From Camelus ferus (Eukaryota): a DNA stretch of 64,000 nucleotides. Shown here one piece after another: positions 10,274 through 56,115 of this stretch. The stretch lies in assembly GCF_009834535.1 (NCBI RefSeq), contig NC_045696.1:19532001-19596000 (forward strand), given 5' to 3'. The notes under the pieces were generated by a model. That model was not told where the DNA came from, did no database searches, and saw only the letters and a program-made list of their open reading frames with translations. How positions within the stretch are numbered: the first letter of the stretch is position 1; every line of letters starts with the position of its first letter. The position numbers and the translations under genes are program-made.

Positions 10274-10424
10274 ATTCAATGTCAAGGTACATGCTTTTTT
10301 GGTGCCCTCCAATTCTACTTGCAGCTTCACAGTCATATCTCCCTGAATCTGACAACTTCACATCTTTAATATGCAGCGATGAGCTTCCGTGCTGCCCTTT
10401 GACTTCGATACGGCCGTCTGGGCT
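10274..10424 (-). CDS. NCAM2: NCAM2 coding exon (approx. exon 9), C-terminal half of Ig4; 151 nt, phase 0 to phase 1
   Basis: Lies within ORF 10185..10511(-): [50 protein letters not shown], with the Ig D-x-G-x-Y-x-C motif. Acceptor taaacag|AGC, donor GAAT|gtaagt. Confidence 0.98.
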
Positions 10425-39171: not shown

Positions 39172-39317
39172 CTTATCGCCTTCGGAAAAAGTGACGCCAT
39201 CCACCGCTCTTTTCCAAGTGATTTCTGGAATAGGCTCCCCTTCTGCTTCACATATGAGTGTGACTTGACCATTCTCAGATGTAGTCTCATTTTTAAGCTG
39301 CATTATGTGAGGCTGTA
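39172..39317 (-). CDS. NCAM2: NCAM2 coding exon (approx. exon 8), N-terminal half of Ig4; 146 nt, phase 1 to phase 0
   Basis: Translates as (V)[48 protein letters not shown]. Acceptor atattttttacag|TA, donor AAG|gtaaca. Contains an N-E-T sequon. Confidence 0.97.
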
Positions 39318-41599: not shown

Positions 41600-41750
41600 T
41601 TCTTAAAATAATTCTATCTGGTAGCTGCAATTTTAAAATCTACTTTAGAGATGAGAAAACTGAGATTTAAGTTTGGAAAATTAAGTAGCTCATATGAGTG
41701 ACAGAATTTGACGTAGAATCCCCTCTAGATTGTAACTACTATGCTATAAT
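41600..41750 (-). mobile_element. MIR fragment abutting the exon 7 donor
   Basis: tttagagatgagaaaactgagattta...gagtgacagaatttg core. Confidence 0.6.
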
Positions 41751-41756
41751 ACTTAC

Positions 41757-41918
41757 CAAAGACTTGGAGAAATGCCTGCTTTTCATCTTCTCCTGCCTTA
41801 TTTGTGGCCCTGCAGACATACAGGGCCCCCATCACTACTGATTATGTTCCTGACAGTGAGTTCTGTATTGCTTCCTTTCAATGTGTACTTTTCGTTTTCT
41901 TCAATGAACTTCCCATTC
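41757..41918 (-). CDS. NCAM2: NCAM2 coding exon (approx. exon 7), C-terminal half of Ig3; carries an apparent +1 frameshift near 41821-41830
   Basis: Translates as (R)[32 protein letters not shown], one extra base, then [21 protein letters not shown](V). Acceptor tttcttctttag|G, donor TTTG|gtaagt. Length is 162 nt, whereas the phases of the neighbouring exons require 161. Confidence 0.95.
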
Positions 41919-43933
41919 CTAAAGAAGAAAACAGAGGTTGATCTTCATAAATCTGACTTCATCATCACTCAGGAGCAGATCATACTCAGCTTTTTAATCT
42001 GTAATTGTCAATCATTTCATGGCTACTGTCATTGATAGATAAGGCTATATTCCAATCAAAAGTACATTTGTATTATCTCAATAAATATATTGCATACGTA
42101 TTAACATTATACTTGAAAGTGTTTTGACTTTAGAGACAAAAATAACATTTGAGCTGTGTGGAAATCTTGACACTAATCTTAGGCAAAAGGCACTTTTGTT
42201 CAATTTGCACTTGGATTATTAGCAAAAAAAAAAAAAGGTTTTTAATTTTAAATCTACTTTTTATGTTGGCAAGACAACACATATTTATGAAACATTTTTA
42301 TTTATCAGGTTCTGGGACACTTTAAAATAACTTCTATGGAAACATGTTTCAAGAGTGTTTCAAAGTAAATGCAATTTAAATATGTAATGAATGAATTCAT
42401 ATTGCACACAGGTACTGCCAATAAAAGGATAAGAGATATGATTTAATTCATTAGTGAGGAGAAGAAATTTTTCTCAGAAGTATTTTTAAGCAGCTTCCAA
42501 GTTCTTTCTGGAATGAAACAGCGTTCATTTTTCTTCGATTCTAGTTTTGCTGTTCGCTAAAACAATGTCTTTCAACTTGTCTTACAATAACTTACAGTAA
42601 AAATATTTTAAATATGCATTTAAATCTGAAACAGCTTCTACAATTTCCCTTAATATGTGTGAAACATTCTTATAATACAACATATTCTTTTCCATTCTAT
42701 CTTATTCTCCTCATCTCCTCTTCCTTTTCTCTTTCCCTTTTTTAATTTGTCTTCATATATGTGTATGTATACACATGATGGTGTTTGGGACGGTAGCATT
42801 GATTTTAAGACCCACTAATGTAAAAATTTAGGATCTACTTTTAAGGGGTGGGGGAATTTCTTATCCATGCACGTTTAAATTAAAAAAAGAAATATCTAAA
42901 AGGATCATTAAAAAAACTTTCCTAGAATCATACAGAATATTTCCCTGATATTCTAAATGATCTTTCCAGTGAGTTCTGGTTCTGCTCTCTAGAAAGTACT
43001 AGCATGTATTTTAACAGTTCTTATTTTTCTATGACTCAGTAACATCTATTTTTCCAGTTTTTATTGACATGTCAAAATATATCATAAAATAACAAAAATT
43101 CATGAGTGGTGTGAAATATTAGGCATTTTTAAATACTAATGGCAAATGCATATAGGGCTCTGTGCTTTTATGTTTTTAAAATGTTTAATAATTATTTTTT
43201 TCAACTATGAATAATGACAGTGCTTCAGCAGTTTTGTCTAGAATTTTATGTATAGATAAGGCTTTCACCACAATTAGTGACAATATATTTCATAATCTAT
43301 TCCATGAAAAAGAATTCATTTGTCTCATCATCTTCATCACTAGAAATTTCAGCAATTTGTGGCTTAAAAAACACTTTCCCTATATTATTAACATGGTTAA
43401 ATTAGTCCATAGATGTACACTTTCCCTCTCCATCCTCATTCACAGATCAGAGAACTAAACTTTTAAGTGTGATTTCCCAACCCCTCAGTTCACAGATGAA
43501 AAGATTTAGGTTTACTCAGTAATGTAAGCAGCAGGTTAACTAAGTTCTAGTGTTTTTTAAGATAAAGAGATTATTTCTCTACTTCATGTGAAATATTGTG
43601 CTAAATGTCTGCAGTATAGCAAATGAGTGAGACATGGCCACCTAGCTTGAAGAATTAATAATCTGACTGGCAATGATGGGGATGATATCAATCCCATTGA
43701 CACATTTATTCATGACTTTGTGTGTGTGTGTGTTGGGGCAGGGTGAGGAGGGATCTGTTATAGCAGAAGCGAAGGGAAAAGATGATAGCTAGGAATACTC
43801 TGGGAATTTTAGTGGGAAAAAAAATCCATGATTTGGGCTTTGAAGTGGATGGGTAAGTCCTGAAGAATTTAAAGGAAGTCAGTTTTTAAAGATTATGTTC
43901 CCTTAAAGAGCTCAATTTAAAAATATCATTAGG

Positions 43934-47960: not shown

Positions 47961-48078
47961 CTGTACCAGGAGATGGTGGGCTCGGGAGACCCAGAGGCCC
48001 TGCAGGAAAATGTCATCTCTTCTCCTCTTTCTGCTGTGGCATTAAAGGATTTCTGAGGCATTGTGATTGCTGGTGGCA
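47961..48078 (-). CDS. NCAM2: NCAM2 coding exon (approx. exon 6), N-terminal half of Ig3; 118 nt, phase 1 to phase 2
   Basis: Manual reverse-complement translation (V)[38 protein letters not shown](R) matches recalled NCAM2. Acceptor caactttttcag|TG, donor TACAG|gtaggt. Contains the Ig B-strand Cys, C-strand Trp and an N-A-T sequon. Confidence 0.97.
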
Positions 48079-53500: not shown

Positions 53501-56115
53501 AACAACTGTACGCCAACAAATTGGATACTCTAGAAAAAATGGACAAATTCCTAGAAACACAAAATGTGTCAAAAATAAATCATCAATAAAAATGAAATCT
53601 GAATAGACATACAACTAGTCAGGTGACTGACTCTGTAATCAAAAAATCAATAATTGAAAAAGAAGAGGGCATATTCCCTAAGTTATCCTATTCAGGCCAG
53701 CATTACTCTGATGACAAAGTCAGAACAAAAGCACTACAAAAACAAGCAAACAAAAAATCTACAGGCAGTATCTTTTTGAACATTTATGTAAACATCTTTA
53801 AAAAAATACTAGCAAACTGAATTCAGTAGTATATCAAAATGATTATACACCATGACCAAGTGGGATTTATTCCTGGAATTCAAAGGTGGTTCAACATACA
53901 AAAATCTATAAATGTAGTACATCACAGTCATCAAAAGAAGGGAAAAAAATATATGATCATCTCAACTAACGCAGAAAAAGCATTTGACAAAATACAACAC
54001 CTTTCATGTACAACCTTAAAAATGTCAGGAATAAAAAGAAACTCTACCAACCATCAACATAATAAAATCCATATATGAAAAAGCCACAAGAAACACCATA
54101 TTCAATGGTAAAAGGCTGAATGTTTTTCCTCTAGATCAGGAACAAGGCAACAATACCTACTTTTGCCGCTTCTATTCAGCATGGTACTAGAAGTTCTAGC
54201 CAGAGTATTTAGGCAAGGGACAGAAATGAAAGAATCCAAATTGGAAAAAAAAAAAGTAAAATTATCTCTATTTACAAATGATATGATCTTGTATGTAGAA
54301 AACCCTGAAGAGTCCATAAAAAATTTTAGATGTAAAAGATGAATTCAATAAAGTAGAAGACTACATAGTCATCACACAAAAACCAATTGCATTTTTACAC
54401 ACTTACAATAAACAATCTGAAATGGAAGATACAAAAACAATTCCATTTACAATAGCATCCAAAAGAATGAAATACTCAAGAATTAACCAACTAAGTAAAA
54501 CTTGTACAATGAAACTATAAAACATTGCTGAGAGAAAAAACATAAATATGTGTAAATATACCCCATGTTCATGGGATTGGAAGATTTAACATTAAGATGT
54601 TAATACTACCCAAAGTGACCTACAAATTCAATGGAATCCATAACAAAATCTCAATGGCATTTTTTTGAATATATAGAAAAACTCATTCTAAAATTCGCCT
54701 GGCATCTCAAGTGACTCCAACTAGCTAAAGCAATCTTTGAAAGAAGAATAGAGTTAAGATTCACACTTTCTGATTTTAAAACTTAACAGTGACCAAAACA
54801 GTGAAGTACTGGCATAGAGACAGCCATAATAGATCAATGAAATAGAATAGAGAGCCCCCAAATAAATCATCACATACGTTATTAAATGATTTTTGACAAA
54901 GGTGCCAAAACCATTCAACAAATGGTGCTGGGAACACTAGATACCCACATGCAAAAGAAGAAAGCAAGACCCTTATTTAAAACCAAATACAAAAATTAAC
55001 TCAAATGGAATGGAACCAAACATAAAAACTATAAAACTCTCCGGAAAAAAAATACAGGGCAAGAGCTTCATGACATGGGATTTGGCAATGTACTCCTTGA
55101 ATATGACACCAAAGGCACAGGCAACAGAAGGAAAAATAAAGTAAAAGCACAGCCTACAGAATGGAGGAAATATTTACAAGCTGTATATCTGGTAAGAGAT
55201 TAATATCCAGAATATATAGAGAACTTTTAAAAATCAACAACAAAACAACCCAATTCAAAAACGGGCAAGAGCACTTAAGTAGACATTTCTCCAAAGTAGA
55301 TGCAGAAATGGCCAATAAGCACATGAAAAGATGCTCAACATCACCCAGGGAACTGCAAGTCCAAACCACATTGAGATACTGTCTCATATCCAGTAGGAAG
55401 ACTACTATTAAAAAAGTAAAATAAAATAGCAAGTGTTGGTGAGGATGTGGAGAAACTGAAACCTTTTGTATTGCTGGTGAAATGCAAAACAGCACAGCTA
55501 TTGTGGAAAACAGCATGGTGGATCTTCAAAAATTTAAGCATAGAATTGCCGTGTGATCCAGCAATTTCACTTATGGGTATACACTCAAATGAATTGCAAG
55601 CAAGGTCTCAAAGAGATATTTGTGCATCCATGCTCATGGCAGCATTATTCATAATATTTAAAAACTGGAAGCAACCTAAATGTCCATAGATGAAAAAATG
55701 GATAAGCAAAATTTTATACATGCATAAAACAGAAAATCATTCAGCCTTAAAAAAGAAAGAAAATTCTGACATATACTACAACATGAATGAACCTTGAGGA
55801 CACTATGCAACGTGAAAGAAACCAACCACAGAGAGACAAGCACTCTATAATTCCACTTACTATGCACTTAGAGTTATCAGAATCACAGATATAGAAAGTG
55901 TAACGGTGGTTCCTAGAGGTCAGAAGGAGAGGGGAATGGGAATTATTGTTAAATGGGCAGAGAATTCCAGTTTTGCGGGATGAAAAGAGTTACAGAGATG
56001 GATGGTGGTGAATGTCGTGTGATGTTATGAGTGTATGTAATACCACCTAAATGTCCACTTAAAAATTGTTAAGTTGATTAATTTCATGTTATGCATATTT
56101 TACCACAAAAGTGAA
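50545..56115 (+). mobile_element. Near full-length degraded L1 (L1MB-like), antisense to NCAM2
   Basis: 5'UTR, ORF1 and ORF2 remnants, including ORF 53839..54078 ([27 protein letters not shown] region) and ORF 55161..55424, followed by a 3'UTR ending ...tattttaccacaaaa. Confidence 0.95.

Follow-up and report, generated by a model that had tools for sequence, protein, structure and literature searches.

Introduction

NCAM2 is a sorting molecule for olfactory axons and dendrites, and mice deficient in NCAM2/OCAM are viable. The protein is composed of five Ig domains (Ig1-5), two FnIII domains, a transmembrane segment and a cytoplasmic tail, with each Ig domain distributed over two exons; the available text of PMC8471948 reviews its biology. 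The closest described counterpart of the exon considered here is the third Ig domain of human NCAM2 (OCAM/RNCAM), represented by PDB entries 2wim, 2xy1 and 2v5t. Within this exon the camel assembly agrees with the human domain in 50 of 53 residues and differs from it by three substitutions (L to F, I to T and N to S) and by one surplus base, which breaks the reading frame before the F-strand Cys.

A second body of work bears on how such a difference may arise. In the available text of PMC8445201 collapsed or long-read consensus assemblies are described as creating apparent frameshifts, and that of PMC6591954 describes nanopore consensus errors as clustering at methylation motifs and homopolymers. 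Here we analyse a 64-kb stretch of the camel assembly (C1:19532001-19596000, hereafter the window) together with the remainder of the NCAM2 gene and a set of large control exons taken from the whole assembly (2.09 Gb, 2043 contigs).

Results

NCAM2 exon 7 carries one surplus base

The features of the window on which the analysis rests are as follows (window coordinates).

47961 to 48078, minus strand: NCAM2 exon 6, 118 nt, AG/GT borders, ends in phase 2; first half of Ig3, with the B-strand Cys in FSCRASG
41757 to 41918, minus strand: NCAM2 exon 7, second half of Ig3 (I-set); 162 nt present, 161 required
41821 to 41830, minus strand: GGGGGCCCTG, the stretch that holds the single surplus base of exon 7
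41812 to 41814, minus strand: TGC, taken as the codon of the Ig3 F-strand Cys; out of frame in the assembly as written
41798 to 41800, minus strand: TAA reached in the shifted frame; a premature stop if the surplus base is real
39172 to 39317, minus strand: NCAM2 exon 8, 146 nt, AG/GT borders, intact; first half of Ig4
10274 to 10424, minus strand: NCAM2 exon 9, 151 nt, AG/GT borders, intact; second half of Ig4

Exon 7 is bordered by an AG at 41920-41919, immediately preceding 41918, and by a GT at 41756-41755, immediately following 41757. Because exon 6 ends in phase 2 and the first two bases of exon 8 complete a codon, exon 7 has to be 161 nt long, so that at 162 nt the uninterrupted frame expected of an NCAM2 orthologue is lost in the assembly as written. 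On the minus strand the codons AGT AGT GAT are followed by GGGGGCCCTG (three codons and one further base), then by TAT GTC TGC and by AGG GCC ACA AAT AAG, and the ten-base stretch itself is made up of a G5 run (41830-41826), a C3 run (41825-41823), T 41822 and G 41821. The frame that starts at 41917 (frame A) encodes NGKF...SSDGGP, continues into VCLQGHK and terminates at the TAA, and the frame one base further on (frame B) encodes 21 residues and is open to the exon 7 donor. An earlier sequence-only reading of the window had claimed a length of 162 nt against the 161 demanded by the phases of exons 6 and 8, a DGGPYVC motif legible only when one base is dropped, and a premature stop at 41800-41798 in the shifted frame; the exon borders, frames A and B and the position of the TAA bear out all three.

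We take the TGC at 41814-41812 to encode the F-strand Cys on the basis of the D-x-G-x-Y-x-C motif that is general to Ig domains, and this residue pairs with the B-strand Cys encoded by exon 6. The frame break is a fact of the sequence to which chance is irrelevant, and the question is whether the base is present in the animal. Exon 7 is single-copy in the assembly. A stop-free frame of 99 residues lies antisense to exon 7 (window 41736-42035, plus strand); nothing supports it, and we regard it as a by-product of the exon on the coding strand.

The surplus base probably lies outside the G5C3 run

The conserved DGGPYVC is restored by dropping either T 41822 or G 41821, that is, one of the two bracketed bases in CC[TG]TAT, whereas dropping one C yields DGGLYVC and dropping one G of the run yields DGALYVC. 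These outcomes were compared with 22 orthologous sequences, comprising 14 of the 35 hits among longer proteins, all 6 hits among proteins of similar length, and the reference proteins P0002 (armadillo NCAM2) and P0005. The hits came from protein database searches with the read-through exon 7 (35 hits among 183 candidates in the longer class and 6 of 6 in the similar-length class), and all derive from other mammals and are unbroken. In all 22 sequences the Tyr is preceded by P, S, H or Y and never by L, and the Gly before that residue is never A. Since the Leu and Ala-Leu outcomes of a G5C3 run-length slip are absent from these sequences, such a slip is disfavoured, and the comparison suggests that the surplus base is probably the T or the G just outside the run. 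Of the sequence-only reading's proposal of a consensus error beside the G5C3 run, the error gains support from the recurrent insertions described below, but a slip in run length gives way to a T or G outside the run, which fits the orthologues.

Neither size class of the protein database searched with the read-through exon yielded a hit with the flanks of this species. In the JGI metagenomes an exact pattern permitting either exon 7 allele gave 0 matches, and a protein-guided scan gave seven loci, all of them distant (32-58% identity); mammalian NCAM2 was not among them.

NCAM2 exons 2-6 and 8-18 are intact

Read through with one four-letter step at CCTG, exon 7 shares 50 of 53 residues with human NCAM2 Ig3 (PDB 2wim_A residues 231-283, E 1.7e-34), with 29 of 32 residues identical upstream of the break and 21 of 21 downstream. 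NCAM2 chains match better than NCAM1 (E 1.7e-34 to 3.7e-31 for Ig3, versus 9.1e-11 for 1qz1), and the exon 7 piece matches the Pfam I-set family as an Ig half-domain (E 3.6e-10). The assignment of gene, exon and domain made from the sequence alone, NCAM2 exon 7 within Ig3, thus agrees with the 50 of 53 identities to 2wim_A.

In a search with armadillo NCAM2 (P0002) the coding exons for residues 44-837 all fall on one strand of C1. Each gives a single unbroken match with the exception of exon 7, which is absent from the genome-wide match table and is recovered by local tblastn as two matches that overlap and lie in different frames. Exon 2 was located with a degenerate pattern and the borders of 17 exons were placed by hand. 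All 17 of these exons (2-18) have an AG acceptor and a GT donor, the last ending in TAA instead of a donor, and their lengths fit the phases, exon 7 excepted. Residues 19-837 of P0002 are thereby laid out on 17 exons of one C1 strand, colinear with NCAM2 from Ig1 to the cytoplasmic tail, and the usual arrangement of Ig domains over exon pairs with the usual phases is kept. The 16 other coding exons (2-6 and 8-18) are all intact and highly conserved, in line with the earlier proposal, made from far fewer exons, that the gene is not a decayed pseudogene. When the broken codon is written as X, the model of exons 2-18 comprises 818 residues and has no stop; it is identical to Dasypus (armadillo) NCAM2 at 782 of 818 positions and to Myotis brandtii NCAM2 at 797 of 817 (95.6-97.6%). 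Several lesions and relaxed constraint, the marks of a unitary pseudogene, were not found across exons 2-18, which contain one lesion, and the locus is most likely an ordinary functional NCAM2 gene and not a decaying pseudogene.

Elsewhere in the assembly, an NCAM2-like processed pseudogene fragment lies at C21:18227933-18228791 (minus strand). It is intronless, with exons 2-4 joined over residues 18-160, is interrupted by stops, a change of frame and ~400 bp of inserted sequence, and ends short of exon 7. A short open reading frame at window 53830-54078 (plus strand) matches RVT_1 weakly (E 9.5e-5, short of the Pfam cut-off) and is probably a decayed LINE remnant in an intron. Five other long intronic reading frames in the window have no Pfam match.

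Single-base insertions recur in other conserved exons

As controls we used family searches that scored all, or nearly all, of the first-look candidates. The protocadherin N-terminal domain has 55 matches (78 of 78 candidates scored), of which 51 lie in open frames of 788-1099 residues and four in variable exons that are split (frames of 320, 693, 422 and 399 residues). Each of the four is otherwise open over ~800 codons and its frame steps by +1, giving five single-base insertions in four exons, and alignment with paralogs locates exactly one surplus base per step.

C3:98333855-61: first split exon (L045), CGC[T]GAG versus CGC-GAG in L046
C3:98371081-87: second split exon (L046), CAA[T]GTG versus CAG-GTG in L045
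C3:98372215-24: second surplus base of L046, near its 3' end
C3:98720278-84: third split exon (L044), CA[A]GC; the intact neighbour (367/400 identical) is one base shorter
C3:98564681-93: fourth split exon (L043), one base more than its neighbour (258/400 identical)

The plakin-repeat matches (131 of 131 candidates scored) include one gene on C20 that is split into frames of 794 and 308 residues.

C20:5045496-5045502: desmoplakin last exon (L047, positions 597-603), CAC[T]GAG with one surplus base

The break falls between ...DDVFSSSRH and ESVNKISTISS... and shifts the frame between plakin-repeat domains B and C. The upstream frame is identical to human desmoplakin at 60 of 60 positions (PDB 5dzz), and the downstream frame is nearly identical to plakin-repeat domain C (PDB 1lm5, E 4.7e-114). 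Desmoplakin is essential, and truncation of its C-terminus causes severe disease of the skin and heart; the reference animal is very unlikely to be truly homozygous for such a break. Human protocadherin clusters contain some pseudogenes, and the protocadherin lesions could likewise be real pseudogenes; if they are, desmoplakin is the only hard control left. Taken at face value, the lesion seen in NCAM2 recurs once in desmoplakin and five times in four protocadherin exons, in every case as a single-base insertion.

An epiplakin-like plakin-repeat array (C25:859423-874179) has open frames of 2065, 881, 1079 and 1221 residues, and its near-identical repeats are spaced by 1570, 1570, 1570 and 1569 nt, 1570 not being a multiple of 3. 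The array may reflect misassembly or collapse of the repeat, or may be real; it lies in GC-rich DNA in which all three frames are open and break points are not placeable, and it was left out of the lesion count.

Rate and pattern of the lesions

The controls also include many long frames that are uninterrupted: titin-like frames of 5722, 2155, 2140, 1019, 731 and 622 residues, frames with Xin repeats (3128 and 1856) or APC repeats (2219 and 1659), and plakin frames of 2073, 1807, 1819, 638 and 860 residues, the genes being named from family and size except for desmoplakin. Over ~225 kb of large exons the six control lesions amount to ~2.7e-5 per base, which in absolute terms is a low rate. A PF00001 control, of which the best 147 of 1641 candidates were scored, is biased to intact genes and was kept out of the rate. 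At ~2.7e-5 per base, ~0.07 lesions are expected per NCAM2 coding sequence, which is probably orders of magnitude above any plausible frequency of true null alleles in a gene so conserved; for one particular 161-nt exon the expectation is ~0.4%, so that an error there is a priori rare.

With NCAM2 included, all seven lesions are single-base insertions. An extra T directly before a G is readable in four of the seven, three of these at a CpG, which is confirmed by a paralog in one case and is putative in NCAM2 and desmoplakin. The NCAM2 lesion fits such an extra T before G better than it fits a slip in the G5C3 run. Among germline indels so strong a bias toward insertions would not be expected, and the one-sided, context-bound pattern points to a technical cause.

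Sequencing runs and window composition

The 64-kb window contains zero N, which fits a long-read assembly. Among 24 listed sequencing runs, 14 are DNA-like, carry the labels of two organisms and come from several studies; they contain 0.91-0.97 of 138 sampled window words, and small RNA runs contain 0.07-0.20. The best share is 0.97 and no run is complete, which fits a shared difference at the lesion site but equally any SNP or contig break, and these shares were given no weight, those of the small RNA runs included.

Discussion

The surplus base of NCAM2 exon 7 is best explained as a false single-base insertion in the assembly consensus and not as a mutation in the animal, a reading to which our analysis would assign a probability of roughly 0.87. 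It is favoured because the lesion is isolated, its flanks are undecayed, the same type of lesion recurs elsewhere in the assembly, all of the lesions are insertions, and their rate lies far above any plausible frequency of a true null allele. We infer that the recurring lesions are technical in origin. Two candidate causes may be considered: miscalls at methylated CpG sites in a long-read consensus, or a collapsed consensus in which both alleles of a heterozygous SNP would be written in tandem. As in the frameshifts described in the available text of PMC8445201 and PMC6591954, the lesions are single-base indels in otherwise intact conserved genes and turn up repeatedly in the assembly, one of them in an essential gene. 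Unlike the cases set out there, those found here lie mostly outside long homopolymers, are all insertions, and in several instances look like an extra T before the G of a putative CpG, so that the parallel is one of behaviour and not of proven cause.

The strongest alternative, which we nevertheless regard as unlikely, is a real and very recent one-base insertion that creates an NCAM2 null allele, heterozygous or homozygous and maybe segregating, perhaps in a small population. The transcript would then meet the TAA seven codons past the shift and be subject to NMD, and any protein would stop inside Ig3. The base is, after all, present in the assembly, the large exons of which are mostly clean; one-base insertions do arise beside short runs, the assembler may have picked the true allele of a heterozygous site, and the viability of NCAM2/OCAM-deficient mice implies that a null allele need not be lethal. 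Against this stand the strong constraint on the rest of the gene, which retains 95.6-97.6% identity to distant orthologs and has no other lesion, the same form of lesion in protocadherin exons and in desmoplakin, which is essential, and the uniform direction of the lesions, seven insertions out of seven. A consensus error had already been ranked above a recent or segregating null allele when the window was first read; that order is strengthened by the intact exons and by the insertions in desmoplakin and the protocadherins.

Two further possibilities would accept the base as real, and even jointly they carry little weight. Fixation of NCAM2 as a unitary pseudogene throughout the lineage could be read from the position of the premature stop, in exon 7 of 18, and from the runs labelled with two organisms, in which most of the window is represented. 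This is highly improbable given 16 other coding exons in frame, canonical splice sites in 17 of 17 exons and 818 codons free of stops; moreover, the 21 residues past the break are all identical to human, and an aged pseudogene would have gathered further lesions and substitutions. Least credible is a biological bypass of a real base, whether through programmed +1 ribosomal frameshifting, RNA editing or alternative splicing. Nothing speaks for it beyond the conservation of both exon 7 halves, each in its own frame, whereas 22 of 22 orthologous sequences read straight through and programmed +1 frameshifting is known for very few mammalian genes.

Splicing routes to a restored frame were considered in turn. 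Skipping of exon 7 shifts the frame, because exon 8 needs one base before it to complete its first codon and exon 6, ending in phase 2, supplies two; the only internal GT...AG pair (GTATGT...CAG) spans 12 nt, too short for an intron; and shifted splice sites were rejected on grounds of phase and size.

If, as we favour, the surplus base is an error of the consensus, it has no biological content, but automatic annotation of this assembly and screens for lost genes would falsely report breaks in NCAM2, desmoplakin and several protocadherins. A mammalian coding complement comprises ~30-35 Mb, and at ~2.7e-5 per base several hundred to a thousand false frameshifts would be expected in it. The practical by-product of the analysis is therefore a warning of recurrent single-base insertions in the coding exons of this assembly. 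Were the base real, the animal would carry a natural counterpart of the mouse NCAM2/OCAM null allele. Such a natural knockout, affecting an adhesion molecule of the olfactory system and the cortex in a large mammal, would hold moderate interest for studies of olfactory wiring and of small-population genetics.
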